64,000 nucleotides of DNA. Origin: Candidatus Nealsonbacteria bacterium. Lineage in GTDB: Bacteria; Patescibacteriota; Minisyncoccia; Minisyncoccales; JAGGXC01. Positions 1,818 through 46,941 of this stretch are shown here, piece after piece. Under the pieces are notes generated by a model, which saw only the letters and a list, made by a program, of their open reading frames with translations, was not told the origin of the DNA and did not search any database. The stretch is from the NCBI GenBank assembly GCA_026396195.1, contig JAPLXH010000007.1, forward strand, positions 35,006-99,005. Reading direction: 5' to 3'. The first letter of the stretch is position 1. Every line of letters starts with the position of its first letter. A program made the translations under genes and the position numbers.

Positions 1818-2846
1818 ATGATAGAAATTGACGGCTCTCATGGCGAAGGCGGGGGCCAAATCTTAAGAACAGCTTTGGCTTTGTCGGCAATAACCAAAAA
1901 AGAATGCCGGATTTTAAATATCAGAAAGGGTCGGGAAAGGCCAGGATTGGCCCATCAGCATCTTTTGGAGGTTCAAACCCTGTCCCTGCTTTGCCAAGGC
2001 AAGTTAGAGGGAGATTTTCTAGGGTCGAAAGAGATTAAATTTTTTCCCGGAAAAATTAAAAACGGCCGGCAATCGTTCAACATCAAGGTGCCTGCTGCCG
2101 AAAGCATAACCTTGCTTTTACAGGGATTGCTGCCTTTTTGTTTATTAAGCGAATCTCCAACAACTCTTATTATTGAAGGAGGAGCAACTGATACTTTTTT
2201 TTCTCCGACCATTGATTATTTTCAATATTGTTTTTTAAGAGTTTTAGAAAAGCTGGGAGGAAAAATAGAAATAGAAATTTTAAAAAAAGGATATTACCCG
2301 GAAGGAAATGCCAATTTAAAAATTAAAATAATTCCTTCAAAATTAAAAAAAATCAACCTTGTGGAAAGAGGAGAATTTAAAAAAATCAGGGTTTTTTCGG
2401 GAGCTTCCGAGTTTTTAAAATCAAAAAAAGTGGCTGAAAGACAATTAGCCGGAATAAGGGAGGTTCTTGGAGAGTTAAACCTAAATGTTGAAGAAAAGGC
2501 AGAATATTATCAGACTCAATGCCCGGGAAGCCAGGTTTGTATAATCTGCGAATTCGAAAATACAATTATCGGAACCGACGGCCTGGGAAAATTTGGAAAA
2601 AGAGCCGAGGATATTGGAAAGGAAACGGCTCTGGAACTTTTAAAAGAGCAAAAAAGCAACGCCTGTCTTGATAAACGCCTAGCTGACCAAATTTTAATTT
2701 ACTTGGCTTTAATTGAAAGAAAAAGCTCGGTAACTGTTTCAGAAGTTACCGAGCATTGTAAAACCAACATTTGGGTAATTGAAAAATTTTTGGAGGGAAA
2801 CTTTGAAATAAAAAATAATCTGATAAAGCGGACTCCATCCCTCTAA
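1818..2846 (+). CDS. rtcA: RNA 3'-terminal phosphate cyclase
   Basis: N-terminus IDGSHGEGGGQILRTALALSAIT, followed by NIRKGRERPGLAHQHL; the length (342 aa) is typical for RtcA. Confidence 0.85.
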   Translation: MIEIDGSHGEGGGQILRTALALSAITKKECRILNIRKGRERPGLAHQHLLEVQTLSLLCQGKLEGDFLGSKEIKFFPGKIKNGRQSFNIKVPAAESITLLLQGLLPFCLLSESPTTLIIEGGATDTFFSPTIDYFQYCFLRVLEKLGGKIEIEILKKGYYPEGNANLKIKIIPSKLKKINLVERGEFKKIRVFSGASEFLKSKKVAERQLAGIREVLGELNLNVEEKAEYYQTQCPGSQVCIICEFENTIIGTDGLGKFGKRAEDIGKETALELLKEQKSNACLDKRLADQILIYLALIERKSSVTVSEVTEHCKTNIWVIEKFLEGNFEIKNNLIKRTPSL

Positions 2847-4097
2847 CTAAAATAAATTGCCTTGCTGAGACAATTTTTTTTGTTCTTCTTTGGAAAAAAT
2901 TTTAATTTTTCCGTAAACTCCGTCGTATCCGGGCTCAATATAAATTTTACCCTCTCTGCTTCTTAAAACCCCTTCTGCGATTTCAGGCCTGGAAACCTTC
3001 TCAAGGTCTTTCAAAGAAGTTTCCAGTAAAACATTGAATTCGTTTCCGAAGTTCTTAATTAAATTTTCATACTCTTTCGTTGTTTTTTTTGTTCCAACCC
3101 CTATTCCCAAGCTTTCGGCGATTATTTCTTGCAGAGGAATCAAACTTTTAAAAGGAATCGCATTTTGAGGTTTAAATCCTTCGGGCCGGTCGGAAAGCTT
3201 TTCTATTCTGTTTAAAACGCCTATTGTCAGACCTTTGCCGCAAACCGGACAAATGTTTCCGCATTTCTTAGATTCTTTGGGAGAAAAATTTACTCCGCAA
3301 TTGCGATGCCCATCATAATGGTATTTTCCTTCTTGAGGATAAAATTCAATCGTATAAAGAAATTTTTTAGGGTTTTTTGATTTTATCGCCTCAACAATAT
3401 TTGAATAACTTAAAAAATCTAAATCAAAAATATTCGCTTCACGGCCGATTTTAGCCGGACTGTGGGCGTCGCTGTTGGAAATAAGGGTAATTTTATCCAA
3501 AGCGGAAATCCGCCAGTTCATTGCCGGGTCAGAAGATAATCCGGTTTCTCCGGCAAAAATATAACAGGAGTATTCTTCAAAACATTCTTCGATAGAATCA
3601 AACCCTGATTTGGAGCCGAACAAAGAAAACCAAGGCGTCCAAATATGGCAGGGAATCAAAACACAATCTTTGGAGATGCTAAAAACAATTTTTGCCAATT
3701 CTTTCGAGTCCAAGCCCAGAATAGGCCGGCCATCGGATTTCAAATTACCGATTAAGCCAAGCTGGGTATTTATTTTTTCAGCTATTTCAAAAGAAGGAGA
3801 AAAAATTAAATTATGAATTTTGCGGACCTTGTTGTTTTTACTGTAAATACCGGAAATTTCTACGGTCAATATGAATCTTATTTTTGAGTCGGATTTTTTC
3901 AATTTAAATAAACCGGGCTCCGCCATTTCCAGTTTTTCTTTCAAACCTTTAAACCATTGAGGGTGGGTAAAATCACCCGTACCTAAAACATCAATTCCTT
4001 TAACTCTTGCCCATTTATCCAAGCTATCCAAATCCATCTGGGGAGAGGTAGCTCTGGAATACTTTGAATGAATATGAAAATCGGCAACTATTTTCAT
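2847..4097 (-). CDS. PHP-domain endonuclease, endonuclease Q (EndoQ)-like
   Basis: Begins ADFHIHSKYSRATS (PHP metal site). Also has GTGD, the NSDAHSP motif and a C4 Zn finger CGNICPVCG; about 416 aa, as in archaeal/Bacillus EndoQ. Confidence 0.55.
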   Translation of the reverse strand: MKIVADFHIHSKYSRATSPQMDLDSLDKWARVKGIDVLGTGDFTHPQWFKGLKEKLEMAEPGLFKLKKSDSKIRFILTVEISGIYSKNNKVRKIHNLIFSPSFEIAEKINTQLGLIGNLKSDGRPILGLDSKELAKIVFSISKDCVLIPCHIWTPWFSLFGSKSGFDSIEECFEEYSCYIFAGETGLSSDPAMNWRISALDKITLISNSDAHSPAKIGREANIFDLDFLSYSNIVEAIKSKNPKKFLYTIEFYPQEGKYHYDGHRNCGVNFSPKESKKCGNICPVCGKGLTIGVLNRIEKLSDRPEGFKPQNAIPFKSLIPLQEIIAESLGIGVGTKKTTKEYENLIKNFGNEFNVLLETSLKDLEKVSRPEIAEGVLRSREGKIYIEPGYDGVYGKIKIFSKEEQKKLSQQGNLF

Positions 4098-4939: not shown

Positions 4940-5485
4940 TTATCGACCTTTTTTGTCTTTTATTAATTTAATAACCTCGCTGACTAATTTTTTAGGGTCG
5001 GACTCATAGGCTATTCTTAGCTTTCCCCGAAAAGGCTTTCTTATTAATCCCTTTATCATGTCGGCCGTCCCTCCCGAACCTATTAAAACGCCGATTGGTT
5101 TTTGGTCTTCAAAAGCGATTGTAAACTCATTTAACGTTCCCATTCTTCCGCAAATAACAATTATCGCATCAGCGGCTCTAGTCATCAGAAGATTCCTCCC
5201 CGCATAGTCAAAACCGGTATAAACCATGGTGTCAAAAGCATCAAGAGGAAGGCGATAGGCTTTCTTGTGGGATAGCTCTGAAGCGGCCGGAGAAAAACCG
5301 ATACTTATTCCGCCGGCTTTCTGCGCTCCCTTGGCGGAAAAATAAGGAACTCCGGTGGTTGCCCCGGTAACTATAATGCAATCCTGACGGGCAATTTCTT
5401 TGCCGACCTCTTCAGCCAATTTTTCTACGTTTTCGCAACAATGGACTATCTGAGCAGCTCCTGAAACCGCAATTTTGTATTTCAT
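4940..5485 (-). CDS. LOG-family / TIGR00725 Rossmann-fold nucleotide-binding protein (cytokinin riboside 5'-monophosphate phosphoribohydrolase-like)
   Basis: 181 aa with IAVSGAA...IIVTGATTGVPYFSAKGAQKAGGISIGFSP and GRMGTLNEFT motifs typical of the LOG/SLOG fold. Confidence 0.6.
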   Translation of the reverse strand: MKYKIAVSGAAQIVHCCENVEKLAEEVGKEIARQDCIIVTGATTGVPYFSAKGAQKAGGISIGFSPAASELSHKKAYRLPLDAFDTMVYTGFDYAGRNLLMTRAADAIIVICGRMGTLNEFTIAFEDQKPIGVLIGSGGTADMIKGLIRKPFRGKLRIAYESDPKKLVSEVIKLIKDKKGR

Positions 5486-5804
5486 AATTTTTACTTATAT
5501 GGATTAGTTAATTGATTATATTGTATTTTAACAGATTTAAATAAAAACAAAAAAGAACAGACAGTCGTTATTCACAACCGCCTGTTTGAGAGAAATGAAC
5601 GAAAATTTAATAATTTTAGTGTTCTTAAGCTAGTTGGGCAACAGCTAATTGCGCAAACACTTCCATTACTAAACCTTATTGCCCTATTTGTCCTTCTCTC
5701 AGTTTTGATATTAATGTTTAAAAACTATTCGTCAAGTTTAAAAACTTATTTTTTCCCCCTCTTTTTTTCCACTATTTATTAACAATTTTTACAGACAAGC
5801 TGTG

Positions 5805-5983
5805 TGCCCTCGACAGGAGTCGAACCTATATTTCAAGCTTCGCCTTGAACCGCAATAATGCGCCTGACTGGATTCGAACCAGTAATCTTTGGCTTCGGAG
5901 GCCAACGCTCTATCCGTTGAACTACAGGCGCATAAGGTTATGGGGCAAGAAGGCTCGCGCTCTGTCCATTGAACTACGAGGGC
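5805..5983 (-). tRNA. tRNA-Arg(UCU) gene interrupted in the anticodon loop by a 107-nt insertion (putative intron or insertion)
   Basis: 5' part (5948..5983): GCCCTCG TA GTTC AATGGACA GAGC G CGAGC CTTCT. 3' part (5805..5840): AA GCTTG AAAT ATAGG TTCGACT CCTGT CGAGGGC A. Joined, they fold as a 72-nt tRNA with anticodon loop CTTCTAA, identical to the E. coli argU loop. No CCA is encoded. Confidence 0.55.
5859..5931 (-). tRNA. tRNA-Arg(CCG), nested inside the interrupted tRNA-Arg(UCU) gene
   Basis: GCGCCTG TA GTTC AACGGATA GAGC G TTGGC CTCCGAA GCCAA AGATT ACTGG TTCGAAT CCAGT CAGGCGC A. Clean cloverleaf, 73 nt, anticodon CCG, no encoded CCA. Confidence 0.8.
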
Positions 5984-5999
5984 GTATTACAGACACTAA

Positions 6000-6713
6000 T
6001 TATTTTTCAACTACCAAATAAATATTGGCTTTCTTGTTTTTGCCTCTGGAAAAAAATCCCGAGTCTCTCACGTGAAAACCGGACTTTTTAGCTAAACCTT
6101 CCAGCTCCTTTTTGTCAAAACAATGGAAATAACGCTCAGCTCTCTTTTTTTCTTGAGACCCCTTCCAGAGATAAAGAATATCTTTTTGATCTAATTTTGA
6201 CTTTCCAAAAAATCTTAAAATTGTATACTTTAATAAAAACCAGAAGGTTTCCTTTTTGCTCCAAAGATTCCAAACCGTTAAAATTAAAAGTCCTTTATTT
6301 TTTAAAACTCTTTTTGCTTCCTCTAAAAATTTTAAGCGAAAGTTATCGGACGGAATATGATGTAAAACAGCGATACAATAAATTTTATCAAAAGAATTAT
6401 CGGGAAAAGACAAATTTAAGGCTTCGGCTATCGAAAACCTGGAAGCTTCTTCCGGATATTTTTCCTTGGCAATTTTAATAAGCTCTTCGGAACTGTCCAC
6501 CCCGGCATAGTTTATGTTTTTTTCTCTTAACAATCCGAAAAGCCGGCCATTGCCGCAACCCAAATCCAAAACCTTGTCTCCGGGCTCAATGTATCTTGCC
6601 AAGGGAATCAATTCTTCCCACAAAAAAGCTCGGGAATCGGAAAATTCCTTGGATATAACATCATATCCCTTGCGACCCTCTACTAATAAATATTCCGCAT
6701 ATTTTTCATCCAT
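6000..6713 (-). CDS. Class I SAM-dependent methyltransferase, Trm9/ALKBH8-like (tRNA cm5U34 methyltransferase candidate)
   Basis: Motif I VLDLGCGNGR; SDSRAFLWEEL resembles the Trm9 N-terminal region; the conserved IAVLHH dyad and the LILTVW block match Trm9/ALKBH8 rather than generic methyltransferases. Start trimmed to MDEKYAEY. Confidence 0.55.
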   Translation of the reverse strand: MDEKYAEYLLVEGRKGYDVISKEFSDSRAFLWEELIPLARYIEPGDKVLDLGCGNGRLFGLLREKNINYAGVDSSEELIKIAKEKYPEEASRFSIAEALNLSFPDNSFDKIYCIAVLHHIPSDNFRLKFLEEAKRVLKNKGLLILTVWNLWSKKETFWFLLKYTILRFFGKSKLDQKDILYLWKGSQEKKRAERYFHCFDKKELEGLAKKSGFHVRDSGFFSRGKNKKANIYLVVEK

Positions 6714-8286
6714 GAAAATAGAAAAAATTATAATAAAAGAATTAATAAATAAAAAAGCAAAAACCTCCGAAGAGCTGGCTAAAACTAAAAGGGAAATGGC
6801 TAAAAAATTTAAAATCCCTTGTTTTTCCAATGTCCAGCTTATTCAAGCTTATCATGAATTGTTGAAAGAAAAAAGAATAAAGAGAGATGAAAGTTTGGAA
6901 AAAATTCTCAGAAAAAGGCCTGTTAGGACTCTTTCGGGAGTGGCCGTTGTTTCCGTTCTGACCAAGCCATATTCCTGCCCGGGAAAATGTATTTTCTGCC
7001 CAACTGAAAAAGGATTGCCGAAAAGTTATTTAAAGGGAGAACCGGCGGCAGAAAGAGCTCTAAAATTAAACTTTAACCCCTATTTGCAGGTTCAAAAAAG
7101 GATTGAAAGCTTGAAAAAACAAGGACACCCTACCGATAAAATTGAGTTAAGAGTTATTGGGGCCACTTTTTCTTCGTATCCGAAAAATTATAAAATTTGG
7201 TTCTTTGCTAATTTATTCAGCGCTGCTAATGGAAAAAAAGAAATAAAAAAATCTGATATTAAAATTTTCAAAAAAGAGAAAAAAATAAACGAAAAAACAA
7301 AAAATAGGATTGTGGGAATCTCGATTGAAACCAGGCCCGATTTTATAAACGAAAAAGAAATTCTTTTAATGAGGATGCTGGGAATTACAATGGTGGAATT
7401 GGGGGTTCAAGCGGTTAGCGAAAAAATTCTCAAAAAATCAAACCGGGGCCACGGCTTAAAAAAAATAATTTCAGCCACGAAATTATTAAAAGATGTTGGA
7501 TTTAAAATAATGTACCAAATGATGCCCAATCTCCCCGGCTCCGATTTAAAAAAGGATTTTTTGGCTTTTGAAGAAATTATTAATAATGGCGCTTATAAGC
7601 CCGACTGGTTGAAAATTTATCCTTGCCTAGTTTGCAAGGGCTCGGAGCTATATAAGACTTGGAAACAAGGAAATTACAAATCATATTCTGATAAAGACTT
7701 GATTGAACTTTTAATTAAAGTAAAAACCGTTCTTCCTCGCTGGATAAGATTAGCCCGCCTTTTTCGGGATATACCAGCTCAAAAAATCGAATCAGGTTCA
7801 AAAATTTCCAACTTAAGAGAGGTTGTCCAAAAAGAAATGAAAAAAAGAAACTTGAATTGCAATTGCATAAGATGCCGGGAAATAAAAGAAAACTTTGACC
7901 CTAATGAAAAGATTTTTCTTTTCAGGGAAGATTATCAAGCTTCCGGAGGAAAAGAAACTTTTTTGAGTTTTGAAAATAAAAAAAGAACAAAACTTTTTGC
8001 TTTTTTAAGACTCAGATGGTCTAAAAATAATTTTATTCCTGTTTTGAATAATTCTTCTATTGTCAGAGAACTTCATACTTACGGACAACAAACTCCTTTA
8101 GAAGAAAATTCTTTGGCAGTTCAGCATAAAGGCTTGGGCAAAAAATTGATTAAAGAAGCTGAAAAAATTACTAAAAAAGAATTTCATCTACCAAGAATCG
8201 CAGTGATCTCGGGAATAGGAGTAAGGGAATATTACAAAAAATTAGGTTACAGATTAGATGGCGAGTACATGACAAAAAAGCTATAA
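6712..8286 (+). CDS. elp3: Elongator Elp3-like tRNA uridine(34) carboxymethyl-modifying enzyme (radical-SAM + GNAT)
   Basis: RPVRTLSGVAVVSVLTKPYSCPGKCIFCP radical-SAM CxxxCxxC cluster in the Elp3 context. C-terminal GNAT QHKGLGKKLIKEAEKI...IAVISGIGVREYYKKLGYRLDGEYM closely matches the Elp3 C-terminus. Start trimmed to MKIEKI at 6712; the upstream 66 codons overlap the methyltransferase gene. Confidence 0.8.
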   Translation: MKIEKIIIKELINKKAKTSEELAKTKREMAKKFKIPCFSNVQLIQAYHELLKEKRIKRDESLEKILRKRPVRTLSGVAVVSVLTKPYSCPGKCIFCPTEKGLPKSYLKGEPAAERALKLNFNPYLQVQKRIESLKKQGHPTDKIELRVIGATFSSYPKNYKIWFFANLFSAANGKKEIKKSDIKIFKKEKKINEKTKNRIVGISIETRPDFINEKEILLMRMLGITMVELGVQAVSEKILKKSNRGHGLKKIISATKLLKDVGFKIMYQMMPNLPGSDLKKDFLAFEEIINNGAYKPDWLKIYPCLVCKGSELYKTWKQGNYKSYSDKDLIELLIKVKTVLPRWIRLARLFRDIPAQKIESGSKISNLREVVQKEMKKRNLNCNCIRCREIKENFDPNEKIFLFREDYQASGGKETFLSFENKKRTKLFAFLRLRWSKNNFIPVLNNSSIVRELHTYGQQTPLEENSLAVQHKGLGKKLIKEAEKITKKEFHLPRIAVISGIGVREYYKKLGYRLDGEYMTKKL

Positions 8287-10143: not shown

Positions 10144-10227
10144 AAAAAATGCGTAAAAAAAAGTGGAAATTAAAAAACAATAAAGGTCGAAGCTTAATTG
10201 CCCATTAGGGCGATTTTTTTTAAATTT

Positions 10228-11232
10228 ATGGAAGATAAAATTGCCACGGCTAAATTAGAAAACCAAGTAATAAAATCAATGAGAAACTGGCTGGAAGAAG
10301 CCAATTTTTTTGAGATTTTTCCGCCAAAAATAGTCAGAGCTTCCGGCGCCTGCGAAAACGTTGACACCTTATTTGAAATAGGAGTAAATGGAAACTTTTA
10401 TTGGTTTAATCCCAACTCTCCCCACCGAACTTACCTTTCCCAAACTGCTCAGTTATACCTTGAAGCTTTTGTCCCTTATCTTAAAAAAGTTTATTCAGTA
10501 GGTCCAAGTTTTCGGGCAGAAGAAGGAGTTGATAACCGCCATTTAACTGAGTTTTCAATGATGGAAATTGAATTTGCCGGAAATTTTAACGAGCTCTTGT
10601 CTTATATTGAAAAGGTTATTTATCAAGTCATTGAAGATGTCTTAAATCTACCGGAAAAAACAAAGGAAGAAATGAATTTTAAGAAAGAAGATACGGAAAG
10701 ATTGGAAAAGGTGAAACCTATTTTTCCAAAAATTACTTACGACGATGCAACCAGAATTCTTGAGCTTCCTTTTGGCAGCGACATTTCCTCGAAAAATGAA
10801 CAAAAATTAGCTGCCCAGTTCGGAGAACAGCCCTTTTTTATCACTCATTTCCCGAATCCTTTATATGACCATGGAAAAGAAATTGAAGTTGAAAAATTTT
10901 TTAACATGATACCTGACCCTCAAAAACCGGAAAGAGTTCTTTCTGCTGATTTAATCATACCCTTTGGAGGAGAATGTGTCGGAGCGGCCCAAAGAGTCCA
11001 CAAGCCGGAAGAATTAAGATGGAGGCTTGAACATTCAAGGATGTTCAAAAGATTGGAGAAAAAAGGCGGAGGACTGGAAGACTTTAATTGGTATTTCCAA
11101 AAAATAAAAGAAAAAAGCGTTCCTCATGCCGGTTGCGGATTCGGAATAGGAAGAATTCTCAAATTTTTAAAAGGAGAGGAAGATATCAAAAAAGCGATTA
11201 CTTTTCCCTCAAACCAAAAAAGTGTAATTTAA
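10228..11232 (+). CDS. Class II aminoacyl-tRNA-synthetase catalytic-core protein lacking an anticodon-binding domain (AsnA-like asparagine synthetase / truncated AsnRS-AspRS paralog)
   Basis: Motif 1 FFEIFPPKIV, motif 2 FRAEEGVDNRHLTEFSMMEIEFA, motif 3 GCGFGIGRILKFL; there is no N-terminal OB-fold. Confidence 0.5.
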   Translation: MEDKIATAKLENQVIKSMRNWLEEANFFEIFPPKIVRASGACENVDTLFEIGVNGNFYWFNPNSPHRTYLSQTAQLYLEAFVPYLKKVYSVGPSFRAEEGVDNRHLTEFSMMEIEFAGNFNELLSYIEKVIYQVIEDVLNLPEKTKEEMNFKKEDTERLEKVKPIFPKITYDDATRILELPFGSDISSKNEQKLAAQFGEQPFFITHFPNPLYDHGKEIEVEKFFNMIPDPQKPERVLSADLIIPFGGECVGAAQRVHKPEELRWRLEHSRMFKRLEKKGGGLEDFNWYFQKIKEKSVPHAGCGFGIGRILKFLKGEEDIKKAITFPSNQKSVI

Positions 11233-25657: not shown

Positions 25658-26578
25658 CTATCTTTCTTCAAAAACCTTAAACTCGCCGAGCCTGTCTATT
25701 AAACTATAGAATTCCATTTCCTGAAAAATTTTTATTATTTTTTCTTTTTCGTACTTGCCGAAACGACAAACATCCAAGTCGAATTCGATGGGAACATCGC
25801 ATTTCGCCTGAATTAACTTTTTACTCAGGAAAGCGTCTTCTTTGTGTTTGAATAAAGCTTCTTTTGTTTTAGAAGAAATTAATTTTGATTTTTCGGTGCT
25901 TAATTCTAGTTCTCCGTAAAGATTGTCCAAGCTATCGAATTCTTTTATTAATTTAATGCCGTTTTTTTCTCCTATTCCCCTGACTCCCGGGATGTTGTCG
26001 GAAGGGTCTCCTCTTAATCCTTTAAAATCGGGCAATTGTTCCGGAGTTAATCCGCCGTATTTTTCTTTAACTTTTTCGAAATCATATAAAATCGTATTTT
26101 TAATGCCTTTTTTTAAGCTGTAAACTTTCGTGTTTTCATTGACTAATTGAAAAATATCGGCATCTCCGCTTAAAATAATGGTTTCGATCTCGGGAATTAC
26201 TTGTTTCTTGGGAGCTAATTTGGCTATAGTGGCAATTATATCGTCCGCTTCAAATCCTTGTTTTTCAAAAATAACTATATTAAAAGCTTTAAGAATCTCT
26301 TTAATCCTGGGAATTTGGCCGGAAAGTTCATCCGGCATTTTAGGTCTTTTTGCTTTGTAGGGCTTAAATTCCAGGTGGCGGAAAGTAACGCCGGGCAAAT
26401 CAAAAGTGGCTGCTACAAAATCCGGCTGAAATTCTTTTAATGCTTTTAAAAAAACCAGTAAAAACCCGTAAACCGCCCCCAACGGCTCTCCTTTTTTATT
26501 GGTTAGGGGAGGCAGGGCATGAAAAGCCCTGTGAATTACAGAGTTGCTATCAATAATAATTAAACGTTTTTTATCCAT
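25658..26578 (-). CDS. 5'-3' exonuclease / flap endonuclease (Pol I N-terminal-domain family)
   Basis: LIIIDSNSVIHRAFHALPPL, GIGEKNGIKLI helix-hairpin-helix. Confidence 0.8.
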   Translation of the reverse strand: MDKKRLIIIDSNSVIHRAFHALPPLTNKKGEPLGAVYGFLLVFLKALKEFQPDFVAATFDLPGVTFRHLEFKPYKAKRPKMPDELSGQIPRIKEILKAFNIVIFEKQGFEADDIIATIAKLAPKKQVIPEIETIILSGDADIFQLVNENTKVYSLKKGIKNTILYDFEKVKEKYGGLTPEQLPDFKGLRGDPSDNIPGVRGIGEKNGIKLIKEFDSLDNLYGELELSTEKSKLISSKTKEALFKHKEDAFLSKKLIQAKCDVPIEFDLDVCRFGKYEKEKIIKIFQEMEFYSLIDRLGEFKVFEER

Positions 26579-32695: not shown

Positions 32696-34870
32696 ATGGC
32701 AATAAGAAAAAAACCCTTAAAAGTGTACCAGGAAAATAAAAAGAAAAAAAGCGTTTTTTTTGTTTTTAAGTTTTTTTTAGCTTGTCTTTTCTTGCTGTTT
32801 TCCGCCTTAATAATAATTTTTATTTATTACGCCAAAGATATTCCTCGCCCTGAAAATTTTTTGGAAAGAAAAATTTTTCAGTCTACTAAAATTTACGATC
32901 GAACCGGCAAGGTTCTTTTGTACGACATCCACGGAGAAGAAAAAAGAGAAATAGTGCCCTTAGACCAAATCTCGGATTATTTAAAAAAGGCCGTGATAGC
33001 AACTGAAGACGCAAACTTCTATCAACATTATGGCATTGACCTCAGGGGAATTGGCCGTTCTGTCTTGATTAATTTAAAACTTAAAAAACAGTCTGATTGG
33101 GTTGGGGGATCGACAATAACCCAACAATTAATCCGTTCTTCTTTATTAAGCCAAGAAAAAACAGCTGAAAGAAAAATAAGAGAAATTGTTTTGAGTTTAG
33201 AGCTAGACAGAAAATATTCCAAAGAACAAATCTTAGAATGGTATTTGAATCAGGTTCCTTTCGGCTCGAACGCTTACGGCGCGGAAGCCGCCAGCCAAAC
33301 CTTCTTTAAAAAGCCTGCAAAAGACCTTTCTTTGGGCCAGGCTGCTATTTTAGCGGCTTTAATCCAAGCTCCGACAAGATTATCTCCTTACGGAGAAGAT
33401 AAAGAAGCTTTGTTAAAAAGAAAAAATTATGTTTTAGATCAAATGGAAAAATTGGGGTTTGTGACAAAGGAAGAAAAAGAAATGGCCCAAAAAGAAGAAA
33501 TAATTTTTTCTGAATTTTCTGAATCAATTAAAGCTCCTCACTTTACCCTTTTTGTTAAAAATTATTTAATCGAAAAATATGGAATTGATTTTTTAGAAGA
33601 AAACGGACTGAAGGTTTATACCAGCTTAGATTGGGAGGCCCAGGAATTAGCAGAAAAACTGGTAAAAGATGGCGTTGAAAATAATAAGAGCTATAACGCT
33701 TATAATGCCGCTTTAGTGGCAATAAATCCAAATAACGGAGAAATTTTAGCAATGGTAGGTTCCGCAGATTGGTTTGGGACTCAATATCCTGTAAATTGCG
33801 TTTCCGGAAAAAATTGCCTGTTTGATCCCAAATTCAACGTGGCCGTTGGAACAAAAAACAGTCCGGGCCGGCAACCGGGGTCAGCTTTTAAGCCCTTTGC
33901 TTATGCCGCTGCTTTTCAAAAAGGATTTACCCCGGAAACAATTTTATGGGACGTTAAAACTGAATTTAACCCTAACTGCAGCCCTGACGGAAACCAACTC
34001 AAAGACCAGTACGGATTAGACTGTTATCATCCCTTTAACTATACCGGCAAGTTTAAGGGACCTCTTAGCTTGCGTAATTCTCTTGCCCAATCCATTAACG
34101 TAACTTCAGTTAAAACCCTTTATTTAGTAGGAGTAGAGAATGCTATAAAAACGGCCCATAGTCTGGGAATTACAACTTTAAACGAAGGGCCTTCTCGTTA
34201 CGGACTGGCTTTGGTTTTGGGGGGAGGGGAAGTAAAGCTAATAGACATGACTTCGGCTTACGGTGTTTTTGCCACAGAAGGATTAGTTGTCCCTCCGGTA
34301 AGTATTTTAAAAATTGAAGATAGTCAGGGTAATCTGATTGAAGAAAATAAAAAAACCCTAAAAAGAGTTTTGGACATTCAAACTTGCAGAAAAATTAATG
34401 ATATTTTATCGGACAACGAAGCAAGAGCTCCAATTTTTGGGTTAAACTCTCCTTTGCATTTTCCGGAATCACAAGTCGCGGTAAAAACCGGAACAACCCA
34501 AGAATACAGAGATGGCTGGGCTATTGGGTACACTCCCTCTATCACGGTGGGAGTATGGGCGGGAAACAATAATAACTCTCCAATGAATAAAGAGCCCGGA
34601 GTGGTCTCCGCTGCTCCTATTTTCCATAAATTTATGGAAAAAATGCTATTAAAATATCCAAAGCAAGAATTTACAAAGCCGGAAAAAACAACGAGTTCAA
34701 TCTCTATTTTAAATGGTGAAATTGACAAACAAAATCCCCACTCTATTCTTTATTATATTGACAAAAATAATTTATCGGAGGCTACGCCTACCGACCCTTA
34801 TCAAGATTATCAATATAAAAACTGGGAAGAAGGGGTTAAATTTTGGGTAAAACAAAATCCGATTTTTTAA
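32696..34870 (+). CDS. Bifunctional penicillin-binding protein 1A (GT51 transglycosylase + transpeptidase)
   Basis: EDANFYQHYGIDLRG transglycosylase motif; SAFKPF (SxxK), SxN and KTG motifs. Confidence 0.85.
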   Translation: MAIRKKPLKVYQENKKKKSVFFVFKFFLACLFLLFSALIIIFIYYAKDIPRPENFLERKIFQSTKIYDRTGKVLLYDIHGEEKREIVPLDQISDYLKKAVIATEDANFYQHYGIDLRGIGRSVLINLKLKKQSDWVGGSTITQQLIRSSLLSQEKTAERKIREIVLSLELDRKYSKEQILEWYLNQVPFGSNAYGAEAASQTFFKKPAKDLSLGQAAILAALIQAPTRLSPYGEDKEALLKRKNYVLDQMEKLGFVTKEEKEMAQKEEIIFSEFSESIKAPHFTLFVKNYLIEKYGIDFLEENGLKVYTSLDWEAQELAEKLVKDGVENNKSYNAYNAALVAINPNNGEILAMVGSADWFGTQYPVNCVSGKNCLFDPKFNVAVGTKNSPGRQPGSAFKPFAYAAAFQKGFTPETILWDVKTEFNPNCSPDGNQLKDQYGLDCYHPFNYTGKFKGPLSLRNSLAQSINVTSVKTLYLVGVENAIKTAHSLGITTLNEGPSRYGLALVLGGGEVKLIDMTSAYGVFATEGLVVPPVSILKIEDSQGNLIEENKKTLKRVLDIQTCRKINDILSDNEARAPIFGLNSPLHFPESQVAVKTGTTQEYRDGWAIGYTPSITVGVWAGNNNNSPMNKEPGVVSAAPIFHKFMEKMLLKYPKQEFTKPEKTTSSISILNGEIDKQNPHSILYYIDKNNLSEATPTDPYQDYQYKNWEEGVKFWVKQNPIF

Positions 34871-35997
34871 GTGCTTTTAATCGGCATTACAACATAAATA
34901 AAATTTTTGTCGTCAACGGGCCTTAACACTCCGGGGCCGTCTTCTCCGTTAAGCTCAAATATTATTTCTTTGCTTTTAATATTATTTAACCCGTCAACAA
35001 GGAAGCGATAATTAAAAGAAATTTCTGTTTTTTCTCCTTTAATTTTTCCCTTCATTTGAGAGCTGCTTTGTCCTAAGTCCGGGTTTTGAGCAAAAACCTC
35101 AATGATCTCTTGACTGGGAGTTGCTTTGATTTTAACTTCATTAATTTTTCCGCTAAACAAACTGGCGGCTTTTATTTGATTAAAAAACTCTTGCCTAGAC
35201 AGAGTTGCGGTAGTTTTAAAATCTTTTGGAATTATTTCTTTATAATTCGGGTATTCTCCTTCAATCAACCGAGATGTAATTTGGACTTCGGGGTGAGGGG
35301 TTTCTTTCATTTTTGACTCAAACATGATTTGATTTGGAGAAAAGAATATTTTTATTTTTTCATAATTTTCTCCAAAAATATTAATTACTTCCCTGATGGT
35401 TTTTTGAAGAACAATTAAAGAAATTTTATCGGGCAAAGACGGTGACTTGGGGATGTTTATTTTTTTTTCGGCCAACCTAAAACTGTCCGTGGCCGCCATT
35501 TCTATGGAGTCTCCGCCCAAACAAAGATAAATTCCTGATATTTCCGGCCTTGTTTGAGAGGAAGAGGCCATGTCCACTATTTGCGTTAAGCCCTGAACCA
35601 GGTCCTGACTGTCTATTTGTAAATTTAGCTCGCTTTTTACTTCCGGAATAATAGGAAAGTCTTCGGGGCCCAATCCTTTTATTTGATTTTTATAATTTTT
35701 CCCCTCCAGGTGCAAAGTATTGTTTTTAACCTCTATGTTTATTTTTTCTTCCGCAATAAAACCAATTAAACTGATTAAAAATTTAGCCGGCACCACAATA
35801 GCCCCCTCTTTTTCGATTTTAGCCAGCGCCCAATATTTAATGCTTAGTTCCAGGTCAGTTCCTGATATTTTTAAAAAATTTTTTTCCGTAGAAAGCAAAA
35901 CATTGTTTAAAACTGGCAAGGTAAAAGATTTTGAAGTGGCCTTGCTAACAATATTTAATCCCCTAAGGAAGTTTTCTTTTAAAATTGAAATCTTCAT
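34867..35997 (-). CDS. dnaN: DNA polymerase III beta sliding clamp
   Basis: MKISILKENFLRGLNIVSKAT...LELSI; three-domain length; sits downstream of dnaA. Confidence 0.85.
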   Translation of the reverse strand: MKISILKENFLRGLNIVSKATSKSFTLPVLNNVLLSTEKNFLKISGTDLELSIKYWALAKIEKEGAIVVPAKFLISLIGFIAEEKINIEVKNNTLHLEGKNYKNQIKGLGPEDFPIIPEVKSELNLQIDSQDLVQGLTQIVDMASSSQTRPEISGIYLCLGGDSIEMAATDSFRLAEKKINIPKSPSLPDKISLIVLQKTIREVINIFGENYEKIKIFFSPNQIMFESKMKETPHPEVQITSRLIEGEYPNYKEIIPKDFKTTATLSRQEFFNQIKAASLFSGKINEVKIKATPSQEIIEVFAQNPDLGQSSSQMKGKIKGEKTEISFNYRFLVDGLNNIKSKEIIFELNGEDGPGVLRPVDDKNFIYVVMPIKST

Positions 35998-36196
35998 AAT
36001 TTTAATAATATTTAATTTTTTATTATTATTGTTGTTATAGAAATTTTTTTAAGGGGTTTTTTAGGCTTTTAGTTGGTGTTGTGCGGAAGTCGTTGTTGAA
36101 AAAATGTTTATAAAATAAGTATTGGGTTGTTTATGTTTTTGGTAAAAAAACAATAGAGGTTTTTTATAAGTTGGTTTTGTTTTTTTTCCACAACAG
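35998..36196. other. Candidate oriC (dnaA-dnaN intergenic region) with DnaA-box-like sites
   Basis: TTTTCCACA and TTATCCACT (each 8/9 to the TTATCCACA consensus) at about 36166-36188, plus an AT-rich tract; conserved dnaA-dnaN / rpmH-rnpA-yidD-yidC-jag neighbourhood. Confidence 0.4.
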
Positions 36197-37552
36197 TTAT
36201 CCACTACATATCTTCTGTTTTATCAACTTGATTTCTTCAACCAAAACTTCGTTTTTTTCAGACTCTTTCGCTATTTTTTCACAACCGTAAATAATAGTGG
36301 TGTGGTCTTTCCCTCCCAGCTTTCTTCCTATGGTAGGAAAGGAACATTTTAATTCTTCCCTTAAAAGATACATAACAACTTGCCTTGGTCTTACTATTTC
36401 TTTTCTTCTGGAGTTGTTTAAAATATCCTCTTCTTTTAAATTATAAAAATCAGCAACGGCCTTAATTAATTGATCGGAGCTTATGACTCTGGGCGGGGCT
36501 TTAATGATGTTTTTTAAAAGATTTTTTGCCGTTTCCAGGTCAGGGATTTTTCCATTTAATCTTTGGCAGGCGATGAGTCGGTTTAGAGCTCCTTCTATTT
36601 CTCTAATATTGGTTTGGACGTTTGAAGCGATAAATTCCAAAACTTTGTCGGAAAATTCCACCTCTTTCTGCTTACTTTTTATTTTTAAAATAGCCAAACG
36701 AGTTTCATAATCCGGATGCCCGATGTCGGCAATCATTCCTCCTTCAAATCTTGACCTCAGTCTTTCTTCAAGCGCCGGAATTGCTTTTGGGAATCGGTCC
36801 GAAGATAAAACGATTTGTTTATTTTTTTCATAAAGAGCATTAAATAAATGGAAAAACTCTTCCTGAGTTTTTTCTTTTCCGGCTAAAAATTGAATGTCAT
36901 CGATAATTAAAACGTCAATTTTTTGATTCTCTTGTTTAAAGCTTTCTATGCTGCCGTTTTTAATGGCGCCTACAATTCCGGTAATAAATTTTTCCGAAGA
37001 AGCATATTTTATTTTTTTATCAGGAAAATTTTCAGAAATTTTATTTCCGATTGCCTGGATAAGATGGGTTTTTCCTAACCCTACTCCTCCGTAAACAAAA
37101 AGGGGATTATAAATAGCCCCTGGGTTTTCAGAAATAGCCCAGCCTGCCGCTTGAGCCATTTCATTGAAGGGTCCGACTATAAAATTTTCAAAAGTATACT
37201 TAGGATTTAAGTTGGTTTCTTTGCTTACTTTTAATTCTTCAAATTCTAACTGAGGAACGCTTTGAGGAGTTGAAAAATATTTTTTTTGTTTTTCTACTTG
37301 GCCTCCGGTTCTATTAATAATGTATTCAACCTCTTTGATTCCTTCATTTAAATCATGCAGGGTTTTTAAAACAAATTTATTGTATTTTTGCTCCAGCCAT
37401 TCTTTAGAAAAAGCATTAGGGACCGAGACCAAAAGCTTTCCTTCTTTTTCTTCTAAAATTTCCGTGTTTCTAAACCATGTTGCAAAATTAGCTTTGGAAA
37501 TGTTAAATTGGATTTGAGCTAAAACAGCTTGCCAAAGTTCTTCTTTGGTCAT
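36197..37552 (-). CDS. dnaA: Chromosomal replication initiator DnaA
   Basis: GGVGLGKTHLIQAIGN Walker A, sensor motifs, C-terminal DNA-binding helix (GGKDHTTIIYGCEKI). Confidence 0.95.
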   Translation of the reverse strand: MTKEELWQAVLAQIQFNISKANFATWFRNTEILEEKEGKLLVSVPNAFSKEWLEQKYNKFVLKTLHDLNEGIKEVEYIINRTGGQVEKQKKYFSTPQSVPQLEFEELKVSKETNLNPKYTFENFIVGPFNEMAQAAGWAISENPGAIYNPLFVYGGVGLGKTHLIQAIGNKISENFPDKKIKYASSEKFITGIVGAIKNGSIESFKQENQKIDVLIIDDIQFLAGKEKTQEEFFHLFNALYEKNKQIVLSSDRFPKAIPALEERLRSRFEGGMIADIGHPDYETRLAILKIKSKQKEVEFSDKVLEFIASNVQTNIREIEGALNRLIACQRLNGKIPDLETAKNLLKNIIKAPPRVISSDQLIKAVADFYNLKEEDILNNSRRKEIVRPRQVVMYLLREELKCSFPTIGRKLGGKDHTTIIYGCEKIAKESEKNEVLVEEIKLIKQKICSG

Positions 37553-37689
37553 AATTTTTTAAAACTTTAAAATTATAGTTCTAAGGTTATATTATAGGGA
37601 TTATATCTCCTGTCAAATGACCTTACTGTTGTAAGGGAAAAGCAAGGAGTTGTTTAAAAGCTGGGGACAAGTTGTGAAAATTTTTAGAA

Positions 37690-37718
37690 TTGACTAACTT
37701 TAAAATCGAGGATATACT
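37690..37718 (+). promoter_or_regulatory. Sigma-70-type promoter for the rpmH-rnpA operon
   Basis: TTGACT-N17-TATACT about 55 nt upstream of rpmH. Confidence 0.5.
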
Positions 37719-37774
37719 GATTTTAGATTTAAAATTAAAATCAAATTTTAATTTTTTAAATTTAAATTAAAATT

Positions 37775-37909
37775 ATGAGTTTTACTTATAATCCCAAAAA
37801 GAAAAAAAGAAAAAGAACCCATGGGTTCAGAAAAAGAATGAAAAAATTTGGCGGCAGGAGGGTTCTTTCCAAACGGAGAAAAAAACACAGAAAAAGATTA
37901 GCTGTTTAA
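37775..37909 (+). CDS. rpmH: 50S ribosomal protein L34
   Basis: 44-aa [44 protein letters not shown]; absent from the ORF track because it is short. Confidence 0.85.
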
Positions 37910-37913
37910 TTTA

Positions 37914-38255
37914 ATGTTGCCTTTAAAAAATAGACTAAAAAAGAAAAAAGACTTTGACGAAGTTTTTAAAAAAGGGAAAGGAATCGAAGGATTTTTTTTG
38001 TTTTTAAAAATAAAAAACAACGACTTAAAAGAAAGCAGATTTGGTTTTATAGTGTCTCAAAAGGTCAGCAAGAAAGCCGTTATTAGAAACAAAACCAAAA
38101 GAAGAATGAGGGCGGCAGTAACGAACAGGAAAAATTTTATTAAAAAAGGATTAGACATTGTTGTTATGGCCAAAAAAGGAGCTGAGCGGAAAAATTTTTT
38201 GGAAATCGAAGAAGAGCTGGTTAATCTTTTGAAAAAAATAAAAGTATTGGAATGA
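37914..38255 (+). CDS. rnpA: Ribonuclease P protein component
   Basis: Basic 113 aa, [24 protein letters not shown]; position after rpmH. Confidence 0.8.
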
Positions 38256-38461
38256 TTAAAAAAGTTTTTTTAAAAACAATTTGTTTTTATCAAAAATATT
38301 TTTCTCCGTTATTTCCAAAAGTTTGCCGTTTCTATCCGAGCTGTTCTGAATACTCGTTTTTAGCGATTAAAAAATACGGAGCAATAAAGGGAACTTTTTT
38401 AGGAATAAAAAGAATTTTAAAGTGCCATCGTTTTAATCCGGGAGGAGTAGACCTTCCTTAA
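38252..38461 (+). CDS. yidD: Membrane protein insertion efficiency factor YidD
   Basis: [11 protein letters not shown] motif. Confidence 0.8.
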
Positions 38462-38472
38462 ATTATAAAAAA

Positions 38473-39165
38473 ATGAACATAGGATTAATTTTCAATATTA
38501 TTTTTTACAAACCATTATTTGGTGCTTTGCTTTGGCTTTCTCAAAATTTGCCCGGGAATGATTTAGGAATAGCGATTATTGTTTTGACCTGTGCTATCCG
38601 CCTTTTGATTTATCCTTTAAATACAAAATCAATTCAATCCCAAAAAGCCCTCCAAAAGCTTCAGCCGAAAATTCAAGAAATCCAATCCAGATTTAAAGAC
38701 GATAAAGAAAAACAAGGGAAAGCTATAATGGACCTTTACCGTCAAGAGAAAATCAATCCTTTTTCGGGCTGCCTTCCAATGTTGATTCAACTGCCTATTC
38801 TAATGGCTTTGTTTTTGGTTTTTAAAGACTTTGCAAATAATTTAGACGTTCGGCCAATGTTTTTAGGATTAATTCCTTTAACAGAGCCTTCTAAAATTCT
38901 GGCTGTTTTGTCGGGGATTGCCCAGTTTTTTCAAGTAAAAATGGTAAGTCCTAAAAACAAGCCCGGTAAAGATAAATCAGATTTTTCACAGATAATGCAG
39001 AAAGAAATGTTGTATTTGTTTCCTTTAATCACCGTTGTTTTCTTGTGGAAACTTCCCTCAGCCATTGGCATTTATTGGTTAACTACCAGTTTGTTTTCAA
39101 TAATTCAACAATACTTAATTTTTAAGCCGAAAAATGATTATCAATCAGGAGATTCAAAAAATTAA
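38473..39165 (+). CDS. yidC: YidC/Oxa1 membrane insertase (short form)
   Basis: 5-TM core, QKLQPKIQEIQSRFKDD, PFSGCLPMLIQLPI. Confidence 0.8.
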   Translation: MNIGLIFNIIFYKPLFGALLWLSQNLPGNDLGIAIIVLTCAIRLLIYPLNTKSIQSQKALQKLQPKIQEIQSRFKDDKEKQGKAIMDLYRQEKINPFSGCLPMLIQLPILMALFLVFKDFANNLDVRPMFLGLIPLTEPSKILAVLSGIAQFFQVKMVSPKNKPGKDKSDFSQIMQKEMLYLFPLITVVFLWKLPSAIGIYWLTTSLFSIIQQYLIFKPKNDYQSGDSKN

Positions 39166-39595
39166 AAATATTATCCAGGGTTTTTTTGAAAAAATGACAA
39201 TTCCTGTTGAGGTTGAAATAAGCCCCCGAAAAGACAAAACCATTCCTATTGATATTAAAACGGAAAACCCGCAAATTTTAATTGGAGAAAGAGGGCAAAC
39301 CTTAATTGAGATTCAGCGGATTTTAAAAATTATCATTAAAAGAATAATCAAAGAAGATATTTTTATTGACTTAGATATTAATGATTATAAAAAGAAAAAA
39401 GTTGAGTATCTTAAAGAACTGGCAAGGGCTGCTGCTGACGAAGTTGTTTCTAGTAAAAAAGAAAAAATTCTGACCCCAATGCCAGCTTACGAAAGGAGAA
39501 TAGTTCACTTAGAGTTAGCTGAAATAAAAAATATTACCACCGAAAGCATCGGCGAGGAGCCGGAAAGAAAAATAGTAATCAGGCCCTATCCTTAA
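39134..39595 (+). CDS. jag: Jag-like KH/R3H RNA-binding protein
   Basis: C-terminal R3H (YERRIVHLELAE); position after yidC. Confidence 0.7.
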   Translation: MIINQEIQKIKNIIQGFFEKMTIPVEVEISPRKDKTIPIDIKTENPQILIGERGQTLIEIQRILKIIIKRIIKEDIFIDLDINDYKKKKVEYLKELARAAADEVVSSKKEKILTPMPAYERRIVHLELAEIKNITTESIGEEPERKIVIRPYP

Positions 39596-39606
39596 AATTA
39601 TTTTTT

Positions 39607-41415: not shown

Positions 41416-41439
41416 TTTGATTTTTATTTATTGACCGGC

Positions 41440-42084: not shown

Positions 42085-42085
42085 G

Positions 42086-42490: not shown

Positions 42491-42509
42491 TTATTTATTT
42501 TAGATTTTT

Positions 42510-43058: not shown

Positions 43059-43140
43059 GCATAATCATAGAAGAGCTAAGAGGATTAAAATGTTCTTAGC
43101 GCCTGAATAATTTCAGGTTGATTTAAAATAAAATAAAGGA

Positions 43141-44403
43141 GTGATGCGAATGGATGAAAATGATAAATCAGAAGAAGCAAAAAAAGAAGCTGAAACGGAA
43201 ATAACCGACGAAGACATTGAAGAAGACATTAAAGAGGAAAAACAGCGGAGAACATTAACTGAAATAGGTTTAAGTGCTGCGATTATTCTTTGGTGGATAT
43301 TATTTCCGACAATAGGATATCTGGCAATAAACGCAATAACCGCGATTTTGCCAACTTCAGCATATATATTATTTATCGATTTTCCGCTTAGAGACTTAGC
43401 TTTTCTTGTTCTGATTATCGTATTAATAGCGCTTGAAATCAGATATATCTACAAGTCTTGGGGATTTATTTCTTACAGGCCCCCTTATGTTGGACTAGGA
43501 GTAATCTGGGGAAAAAGGAAGGTTAAAATAGTAAAAAAAGAAGGATGGATATTGATTGCCGATTACTTTCCCTTTAACTACACAGTTACTTTAATAAAAG
43601 TTCAAAAAATCGACAAAGATTTTACTTTCTCGGACATAAGGACCAAGGCGAAAGAAGAAGAAAAGGACTCTAAATTGCCGTCTAGGTCAGGAGCATTGGT
43701 TGAAGTAGATGTTTCTTTAACTTTTATTCCGGACTACAAAGGCAAGGATGCCGGGGAAAGGCTTAAATCTTATTTGAATAGTGGAGAAGCAGAGGGCGTT
43801 ATAAACATTATCCAAGACCAAATTGCAGAAGAGTTAAGAATTTTAGGCGGGAAACACGATTGGGAAGAATATACTTTCAGTGCGACAGAAATAAAAAGGG
43901 TGCTATTGGAGAAGCTTACAGGAGCTGATATTAACGGGGCAAAAGATGAAAAAGAAAAAGCTAAAAGACAAAGAAAGATTGAACGGGAAATTCGAATTTC
44001 AGGAGCCAGAGATGTGTCAGACTTAGGCATAAGAATATGCAGATTAAACATAGGACAAATAGATTTGCCGAAAAATAGTTCTATGAAAAAGGAAGCTGAC
44101 AGTCTGGAAAGAGAAAGGCAAAAAAGGCAGGGAGACACCATTCAAATGAATTTTCTAGAGGAGCAGGTAAGAAAGTTTATAGCCCTCGGTTTAAGTCCTG
44201 GAGAAGCGTCAGACGTTGTCCAAACCCAACTTAAAATGGCCGGTAAAAATATCAATACCTTCCGGGGATTAGAAGGAAGCAAAGGCAAAGACGGTCAAAG
44301 TCAGGGAATAACGCCCAATATCATAGCTATCGTAGAAGACAAAGTCAGAACCAGTAAAGAAAAAACCAAAAAGAAAGACGAAGACGAAGAAGAAAACGAA
44401 TAA
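43141..44403 (+). CDS. Membrane protein with SPFH/band-7-like domain and K/E-rich tail
   Basis: Acidic N-terminus, 3 TM, then GLGVIWGKRKVKIVKKEGWILIADYFPFNYTVTLIKV...; coiled-coil C-terminus; an upstream TTGACA-N17-ATAATC. Confidence 0.4.
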   Translation: MMRMDENDKSEEAKKEAETEITDEDIEEDIKEEKQRRTLTEIGLSAAIILWWILFPTIGYLAINAITAILPTSAYILFIDFPLRDLAFLVLIIVLIALEIRYIYKSWGFISYRPPYVGLGVIWGKRKVKIVKKEGWILIADYFPFNYTVTLIKVQKIDKDFTFSDIRTKAKEEEKDSKLPSRSGALVEVDVSLTFIPDYKGKDAGERLKSYLNSGEAEGVINIIQDQIAEELRILGGKHDWEEYTFSATEIKRVLLEKLTGADINGAKDEKEKAKRQRKIEREIRISGARDVSDLGIRICRLNIGQIDLPKNSSMKKEADSLERERQKRQGDTIQMNFLEEQVRKFIALGLSPGEASDVVQTQLKMAGKNINTFRGLEGSKGKDGQSQGITPNIIAIVEDKVRTSKEKTKKKDEDEEENE

Positions 44404-44415
44404 ATCGACAGTAAA

Positions 44416-44462: not shown

Positions 44463-44499
44463 TTTTAGTTTGTTTTATTTTCCATTTATTTCACTTTTT

Positions 44500-46938: not shown

Positions 46939-46941
46939 TTT

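Follow-up and report, generated by a model that had tools for sequence, protein, structure and literature searches.

The modification of uridine 34 (U34) in transfer RNA (tRNA) at its C5 atom, via 5-carboxymethyluridine (cm5U) to 5-methoxycarbonylmethyluridine (mcm5U), is described for two kinds of systems. In eukaryotes it involves the Elongator complex together with Trm9-Trm112 or ALKBH8-TRMT112, whereas in archaea Elp3 is a stand-alone protein that lacks the partner subunits Elp1, 2, 4, 5 and 6 (e.g. in M. infernus and M. jannaschii) and is accompanied by an archaeal Trm9. The cm5U34 reaction of M. infernus Elp3 has been reconstituted in vitro, as reported in PMC7663514, the genes for Elp3 and Trm9 were described as clustered in S. 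solfataricus in 2008 (PMC2584109), and Trm9-Trm112 from H. volcanii makes mcm5U (PMC6144793). Here we analyse a stretch of 64,000 nucleotides from the genome of a Candidatus Nealsonbacteria bacterium (phylum Patescibacteriota; contig JAPLXH010000007.1), in the following called the window, in which a gene for a full-length Elp3 and a gene for a predicted Trm9-type methyltransferase are arranged head to head.

In bacteria, C5 of U34 is also the target of MnmE/MnmG, which produce C5-methylene-substituted uridines (xm5U34), and of CmoA/CmoB/CmoM, which produce uridine 5-oxyacetic acid (cmo5U) and its methyl ester (mcmo5U). The enzymes of these routes are unrelated to Elp3 and Trm9 and use a different chemistry, although CmoM, too, methyl-esterifies a carboxylate on U34. 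A review from 2020 restricts Elp3 among bacteria to Dehalococcoides and states that direct evidence for 5-carboxymethyluridine derivatives (xcm5U34) is lacking in bacteria (PMC7663514); a paper from 2026 speaks only of 'numerous bacteria'. In the literature on Elp3, Trm9, MnmG or tRNA modification in connection with Patescibacteria or the Candidate Phyla Radiation we found no description of a conserved bacterial Elp3-Trm9 pair.

Results

Organization of the gene pair

The locus consists of two divergent open reading frames (ORFs) that share their start region (positions are those of the window, its first letter being position 1):

6712..8286, plus strand: ORF of Elp3; ATG at 6712, stop codon at 8284-8286, 524 amino acids (aa), a full-length protein that includes a basic N-terminal extension
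6000..6713, minus strand: ORF of the predicted Trm9-type class I S-adenosylmethionine (SAM) methyltransferase; ATG at 6713-6711, stop codon at 6002-6000, 237 aa
6711..6714, both strands: CATG palindrome shared by the two divergent ATGs, with a 2-nucleotide (nt) overlap

An initial annotation, made from the letters of the DNA, had listed these ORFs, their motifs and the CATG overlap, and all of these features lie where it had placed them. Taken mechanically, both ORFs extend further in the output of the ORF caller (6000..6830 and 6514..8286); the starts of the 237-aa and 524-aa proteins are those at which the homologues and the family alignments begin. Elp3 and Trm9 genes are likewise clustered in the archaeal system, i.e. 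in S. solfataricus, and a Crenarchaeota locus (L046) came from the same search as the bacterial loci described below. The window differs from the archaeal system by its bacterial host and by its gene order, as the genes are co-directional there, but divergent with overlapping starts here.

As no intergenic space is left between the head-to-head genes, each promoter must sit within the opposite gene, and promoters buried in this way would probably couple the expression of Elp3 and the methyltransferase. By eye, two -10-like boxes can be found, namely TATAAT, 13 nt before the ATG of the methyltransferase gene, and TATTTT, 6 nt before that of Elp3. We take these boxes as a mere lead, since a promoter scan yielded 7 sites compared to 6.8 expected from shuffled sequence, i.e. 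no excess.

The Elp3 protein

Family model and motifs identify the product of ORF 6712..8286 as a genuine Elp3 of full length. It matches the family model TIGR01211 with 587 bits (cutoff 350), model positions 2-522 being aligned to aa 7-524, which upholds the Elp3 call of the initial annotation. In Pfam, the protein matches Radical_SAM and Radical_SAM_C and, weakly, ELP3_N (aa 5-73, E value 5.5e-4, below cutoff) and GNAT, the latter match alone being just under its cutoff (22.5 vs 23.6 bits). An alignment of 19 homologues from Patescibacteria, on which we judged residue conservation, highlights three motifs:

6976..6999, plus strand: radical-SAM [4Fe-4S] motif CPGKCIFC (C89, C93, C96), read from the translation; the Cys residues are invariant in the 19 homologues
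7858..7875, plus strand: linker triad CNCIRC (C383, C385, C388), corresponding to the typical Zn site of archaeal/bacterial Elp3; invariant
8122..8139, plus strand: acetyl-CoA motif QHKGLG of the lysine acetyltransferase (KAT) domain; Q471, H472, G474 and G476 invariant

The second of these corresponds to the Zn cysteine motif of Elp3 described in PMC6367351. The third, a QHxGxG motif, is in line with the Elp3-type C-terminal GNAT domain that had been noticed at the outset, and agrees with the weak Pfam match.

The initial annotation had also proposed that translation of Elp3 may begin at the next Met, i.e. at 6796. We reject this start: the invariant residues I8, L22, K26 and R27 lie before it, residues 1-28 as a whole are conserved, and TIGR01211 aligns from residue 7. 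Conservation among the homologues extends over residues 8-72. Given the invariant N-terminal residues and the weak ELP3_N match we conclude that Elp3 is translated from 6712. The protein hence carries the basic N-terminal extension of the archaeal/eukaryotic type, a region that has been tied to tRNA binding by Elp3 (PMC6367351).

Compared to Elp3 proteins of known structure, the Elp3 of the window scores highest with the enzyme from M. infernus (461 bits), above human, mouse and yeast Elp3 (351-373 bits) and D. mccartyi Elp3 (357 bits). The archaeal enzyme likewise has a long basic N-terminus and the Zn cysteine triad, but the cluster motif is CX4CX2C in M. infernus Elp3 and CX3CX2C here. D. 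mccartyi Elp3 (PDB 5L7J) is likewise a bacterial stand-alone protein with the same domains and the same Zn site; however, it has no N-terminal extension and shows weak tRNA binding and activity (PMC6367351, PMC7663514), whereas the Elp3 of the window is full length and nearer to the archaeal enzyme. MnmL/YtqA from Firmicutes (TIGR01212) possesses a related radical-SAM core, which is reflected by a match of 84 bits over residues 196-372, far under the cutoff of 180; the Elp3 of the window has, in addition, the KAT domain and all of the Elp3 architecture.

Our homologue search for Elp3 retrieved thousands of proteins, the closest of which, where the source names them, belong to Patescibacteria, and the homologues from this group already carry the Elp3 name at NCBI and JGI. 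Bacterial Elp3 is thus not rare in Patescibacteria, and the pair with the methyltransferase occurs in Chloroflexota and other phyla as well, so that the earlier statement that stand-alone bacterial Elp3 is rare has to be given up.

Elp3 has historically been annotated as histone acetyltransferase, and PDB entries keep this name. One might thus suspect the protein to be a protein (lysine) acetyltransferase, or some other radical-SAM enzyme, instead of a tRNA modifier. However, in bacterial, archaeal and eukaryotic Elp3 it is tRNA, and not peptides, that triggers acetyl-CoA hydrolysis (PMC6367351). Moreover, all tRNA-related features of Elp3 are conserved here, and the conserved partner is a tRNA methyltransferase of predicted Trm9 type, rendering these other functions extremely improbable.

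The methyltransferase

The partner of this presumably tRNA-modifying Elp3, i.e. the product of ORF 6000..6713, appears to be a Trm9-type class I methyltransferase, an assignment that is supported by its motifs, by profile comparisons and by a modelled fold. The following elements are of importance:

6543..6572, minus strand: SAM-binding motif I VLDLGCGNGR; D50 invariant
6362-6357, minus strand: HH of IAVLHH, read from the translation
6272-6270, minus strand: W148, the final residue of LILTVW, read from the translation
6123..6134, minus strand: RYFH (R194, Y195, F196, H197), aligned to R241-Y242-Y243-H244 of ScTrm9

The first three motifs had been taken as hallmarks of Trm9/ALKBH8 in the initial annotation and are present as read. 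Motif I and the acidic residue D73, which corresponds to ScTrm9 D72, identify the protein as a class I SAM methyltransferase.

Using a family profile built from 33 members we searched the PDB and found Trm9 from Y. lipolytica (5cm2_Z) with an E value of 4.3e-21 over residues 25-220, Trm9 being the only match with an alignment that spans the whole methyltransferase. HHalign aligns the methyltransferase to Y. lipolytica Trm9 with a probability of 99.5% and an E value of 1.1e-22 at 25% identity. The fold points in the same direction: with the AlphaFold (AF2) model, which has a predicted local distance difference test score (pLDDT) of 92.3, Foldseek lists 5cm2_Z on rank 2 (E value 3.2e-16, target-normalised TM-score 0.83). 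By profile, HHalign and fold, Trm9 is thus the closest characterised relative of the methyltransferase, at a level with the uncharacterised proteins 1ve3 and 3sm3.

Mutagenesis of ScTrm9 revealed that R29, D72, H116, W145, W168, R241, Y243 and N271 are needed for activity, a Y243 mutant having ~10% activity (Létoquart et al., PMC4678810). Seven of these eight residues are found in the methyltransferase of the window. R28, D73, H118/H119, W148, W183 and R194-Y195-x-H197 are the equivalents of R29, D72, H115/H116, W145, W168 and R241-Y242-x-H244 of ScTrm9, and for R28, H119 (and H118), W148, W183 and R194 the equivalence is explicit in the alignment to Y. lipolytica Trm9. The protein therefore has R29, D72, H116, W145, W168, R241 and probably N271 in common with eukaryotic Trm9, next to the fold, but it differs from the eukaryotic system in that Y243 is not kept and the identity to Y. 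lipolytica Trm9 is ~25%, and neither accessory Elongator subunits nor an AlkB or RRM domain are present here. Among the 80 genome loci described in the next section, almost every Elp3-linked homologue retains the Trm9 residues, even at ~26% identity, and they are missing in four of the hits without an Elp3 neighbour (L057, L075, L079 and L080), i.e. in partial or weak matches that look like generic methyltransferases.

Conservation of the gene pair

A scan of genome contigs with the methyltransferase as single sequence gave no hits, and an alignment-based rescan gave 80 loci, all from species-representative genomes. At 60 of these 80 methyltransferase-centred loci a divergent Elp3 gene is present, with the start codons being at most 500 bp apart in 52 of the divergent pairs and at most 50 bp apart in 27. 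Two further loci have a co-directional Elp3 gene, and three contain too little upstream sequence to judge. Viewed from the other side, the methyltransferase gene is located immediately upstream of Elp3, and divergent, at 64 of 75 informative Elp3-centred metagenome loci. The start spacing of -2 that results from the CATG overlap can be observed in seven genome loci (L001, L004, L006, L009, L010, L011 and L037), and the CATG-type spacing recurs in many metagenome loci. Beside the pair we found no third conserved gene, only antisense shadow ORFs inside Elp3.

The hosts of the pair comprise many classes of Patescibacteria, Anaerolineae and other Chloroflexota, Fermentibacteria, a few differently labelled metagenome-assembled genomes and one Crenarchaeota contig, and the linkage to Elp3 holds even where the methyltransferases share 26-30% identity. 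As it spans phyla and emerges from both search directions, the linkage strongly argues that Elp3 and the methyltransferase function together. With 587 bits for TIGR01211 and the pair recurring at 60/80 and 64/75 independent loci, the observation is far beyond chance.

Nevertheless, several points weigh against the assignment of the methyltransferase as Trm9 and of the pair as a complete module. Pfam matches of the methyltransferase are generic only (Methyltransf_11 and similar families), neither Pfam nor NCBIfam provides a match to a Trm9-named model, and all NCBIfam hits remain under their cutoffs. In the profile search the uncharacterised protein PH0226 (1ve3, 9.5e-22) is essentially level with Trm9, and rank 1 of the Foldseek search is 3sm3, an uncharacterised methyltransferase from M. 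mazei (2.6e-16). The position of ScTrm9 Y243 is occupied by F196 here, and across the family by Tyr in a large minority and otherwise by Val, Cys, Ile or other residues, while N230 was matched to ScTrm9 N271 by its position in the last strand, not by explicit alignment. At 11 of the 75 Elp3 loci no methyltransferase is found nearby. Finally, eukaryotic and Haloferax Trm9 need Trm112, and a search of low sensitivity with tblastn and a motif scan, which covered the window and 85 related loci, detected no Trm112-like ORF, in contrast to archaeal Trm9-Trm112.

Some of these points would fit an alternative, in which the methyltransferase is a generic, UbiE/COQ5-like enzyme that acts on small molecules or proteins and whose adjacency to Elp3 is inherited gene order without function. 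In favour of it one may cite the Ubie_methyltran match (E value 2.7e-10) next to the many generic Pfam families, the level scores of uncharacterised methyltransferases, and the names at JGI, which vary within the family: some members are called TRM9 or ALKBH8, but several UbiE. However, when the grouping with UbiE/COQ5-type enzymes, which the initial annotation had pointed out as a possible objection, is checked by family models, the UbiE/MenG models of NCBIfam reach at most 55 bits with cutoffs of at least 158 (TIGR01934: 55 vs 158). In addition, the linkage persists over several phyla, at 26-30% identity and also from the Elp3 side, and the Trm9-specific residues follow the linkage to Elp3 and are missing in unlinked methyltransferases. 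A generic enzyme whose place beside Elp3 is without functional meaning is thus very unlikely. The early Trm9-like reading of ORF 6000..6713 is borne out by profile, fold and catalytic residues, whereas the curated libraries stop at generic families, and we regard a Trm9-type enzyme as the supported assignment.

The tRNA-Arg genes beside the pair

Downstream of the methyltransferase gene the minus strand harbours two tRNA-Arg genes, one of which is interrupted by the other:

5858..5932, minus strand: intact tRNA-Arg(CCG), co-oriented with and directly downstream of the methyltransferase gene (ARAGORN; Rfam tRNA 71.4 bits)
5951..5983, minus strand: 5' fragment of a second tRNA-Arg with acceptor, D arm and 5' anticodon stem (ARAGORN in intron mode, inner tRNA masked)
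5804..5843, minus strand: 3' fragment of the second tRNA-Arg with 3' anticodon stem, T arm and acceptor (ARAGORN in intron mode, inner tRNA masked)

The composite is a tRNA inside a tRNA, in which complementary tRNA-Arg halves (5983-5951 and 5843-5804) surround a 107-nt insert that holds the intact tRNA-Arg(CCG). The distance of 16 nt to the methyltransferase gene given in the initial annotation is correct, the 5' fragment beginning at 5983, past the stop codon. Both outer halves are intact and pair perfectly, but for ARAGORN to recognize the outer tRNA as intron-containing, the inner tRNA has to be removed or scrambled. The anticodon of the outer tRNA is then GCG according to ARAGORN, and shifting the junction by 1-3 bases results in UCG or UCU.

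Of 52 related metagenome loci, 46 have the inner tRNA-Arg(CCG) gene directly downstream of the methyltransferase gene, compared to 9 of 73 broader genome loci. This arrangement suggests that the two genes are co-transcribed in the related clade. In the related metagenome loci the tRNA gene is on the same strand as the methyltransferase gene and lies down to 5 nt past its stop codon; it is also located beside Elp3 in 7 of 16 loci in which no methyltransferase was detected.

The outer halves behave differently. In the locus with the most similar Elp3 among those retrieved (L086, 85%), the inner tRNA is identical, the 3' half is decayed, with a mismatch in the T stem, and the 5' half is missing. 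L083 and L084 contain the inner tRNA and neither outer half, and L089 contains an intact tRNA that resembles the outer one (identical acceptor stem, similar 3' half). A metagenome scan gave no second instance of the junction between outer and inner tRNA, Rfam detects the inner tRNA only over 5500-6100, and RNA folding of the composite tRNA revealed no bulge-helix-bulge-like motif. The tRNA introns reported for Patescibacteria are group I introns (PMC13011429), beside which only group II introns have been reported for bacteria, and with its 107 nt the insert does not reach the size of a group I intron. As the relatives lack the outer halves or keep a decayed 3' half, the halves look like a scar of recombination or integration, and we consider a functional split gene less likely. 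The composite tRNA lies between two copies of a direct repeat of 9 nt (TTACAGACA, at 5789 and 5987), which may be due to chance.

The initial annotation had linked the pair to the interrupted gene, read as tRNA-Arg(UCU), as a putative substrate. This link does not hold. The intact, conserved neighbour is tRNA-Arg(CCG), which is no substrate of Elp3 as it carries C34, and the anticodon of the interrupted tRNA varies with the choice of the junction (GCG, UCG or UCU). With its ambiguous anticodon and its lack of conservation in relatives we also reject the interrupted tRNA as a sign of substrate choice. The adjacent tRNA-Arg genes are synteny neighbours and provide no evidence on substrate choice.

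Further features of the window

At ~5535-5700 on the minus strand, upstream of a SLOG/LDcluster4 gene (4940-5485, minus strand), we noticed a candidate for a structured leader or noncoding RNA. A promoter-like site, TTGACG-16-TAATAT (5735-5708), precedes a helix that closes the structure over a long range, and inner helices and an intrinsic terminator come after it. The candidate has homologues in L083-L087 and L089, and RNAalifold predicts 50 base pairs, 12 of them with compensatory changes, from 6 sequences only; no match to Rfam was obtained at E values up to 1.

RtcA, an RNA 3'-phosphate cyclase (1818-2846, plus strand), is encoded back to back with a PHP-domain protein of 416 aa (2847-4097, minus strand), a close homologue of which carries an MJ0043_C domain. 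These genes of RNA-end-processing type are ~1.7 kb away from the interrupted tRNA, and no RtcB is present among the ORFs of the window that were scanned. A 344-aa protein (10198-11232, plus strand) consists of a class II aminoacyl-tRNA synthetase core alone (tRNA-synt_2, D/K/N type), without anticodon-binding domain, and could represent a paralogue of the AsnA or EpmA type instead of a genuine synthetase. For an ORF of 933 aa (54446-57247, minus strand) Pfam yielded no match at an E value of 1e-4 or below.

The region of the replication origin (34867-51222) contains dnaN (34867-35997), dnaA (36197-37552) and rnpA-yidD-yidC-jag up to ~39.6 kb. In many bacteria mnmE and mnmG come after jag. Here, jag is directly followed not by these genes, but by a cluster that resembles type IV secretion or conjugation systems (TraG-like ATPase, TraC-like, PrgI-like and TrbL-like proteins, type IV secretion system pilin). 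No MnmE, MnmG, MnmA or CmoA/CmoB is found in these 64 kb among the 20 ORFs scanned with Pfam (301-933 aa) and the others that are annotated, a few ORFs of similar size (e.g. 43141..44403, 420 aa; 25658..26578, 306 aa) being unscanned or without hit, which is weak evidence for a lack of these enzymes in the genome.

Discussion

Based on our findings we propose that Elp3 makes cm5U34 and that the methyltransferase esterifies it to mcm5U34, i.e. that the two divergent genes probably encode a two-enzyme module for U34. Elp3 would bind the tRNA via its basic N-terminal extension and the central cleft, cleave SAM at the [4Fe-4S] cluster (C89/C93/C96) and use acetyl-CoA held at the KAT domain by QHKGLG, so that a carboxymethyl group would be put on C5 of U34, as expected for a member of an experimentally characterised family. 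Subsequently, the Trm9-type methyltransferase would use SAM to methyl-esterify the carboxylate of cm5U34, a step that is suggested by the conserved Trm9 active-site residues and the obligate-looking linkage of the genes. The predicted steps are thus the same as in the eukaryotic system. The initial reading of the locus as an Elp3 plus Trm9-like pair is sustained by family models, profiles, fold, residues and synteny, while the supposed rarity, the link to the tRNA and the start at 6796 have been dropped.

The pair might also act on U34, but yield an end product other than plain mcm5U, which may be an intermediate on the way to a thiolated or further elaborated nucleoside, e.g. 5-methoxycarbonylmethyl-2-thiouridine (mcm5s2U), or the methyltransferase may methylate another side chain derived from Elp3. 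The archaeal repertoire of Elp3-derived modifications is diverse, and in H. volcanii strains with deleted trm9 or trm112 cm5U was undetected, from which the authors infer a rapid conversion (PMC6144793). The variability at the position of ScTrm9 Y243 would permit an altered substrate geometry. In contrast, the other residues by which Trm9 contacts carboxylate and uracil are all conserved, no gene for thiolation or amidation is conserved beside the pair, and there is no MnmA-like protein among the large ORFs of the window. We consider a different end product unlikely, although it is the alternative with the most in its favour, and keep mcm5U34 as the probable product.

More speculatively, and in our view rather doubtful, Elp3-Trm9 might be the principal, possibly the sole, xm5U34 route in Patescibacteria and Anaerolineae, replacing MnmE/MnmG. 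This scenario would include a Trm9 that is free of Trm112 and a co-regulation of both genes via face-to-face buried promoters with near-leaderless mRNAs that meet at the shared CATG. If this were true, mcm5U would be a normal tRNA modification over a large part of the bacterial tree, and the whole two-gene pathway would have an ancient origin or would have been transferred between domains.

The bacterial pair would represent a known pathway in new bacterial hosts, and we regard it as a solid and useful prediction from genome sequences that is moderately rather than highly surprising. In Patescibacteria a full-length, archaeal-like Elp3 is common, Chloroflexota have it as well, and it is almost always encoded head to head with a Trm9-type methyltransferase, which provides genomic evidence for a complete bacterial route from cm5U to mcm5U. 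The methyltransferase, now labelled as generic or as UbiE, would gain a meaningful annotation. Being small stand-alone proteins, the two enzymes may serve as tractable models for Elp3 and possibly for a Trm112-independent Trm9. Finally, the distribution of the pair makes an evolutionary question testable, namely whether the pathway is a vertical relic or the result of a transfer between archaea and bacteria.

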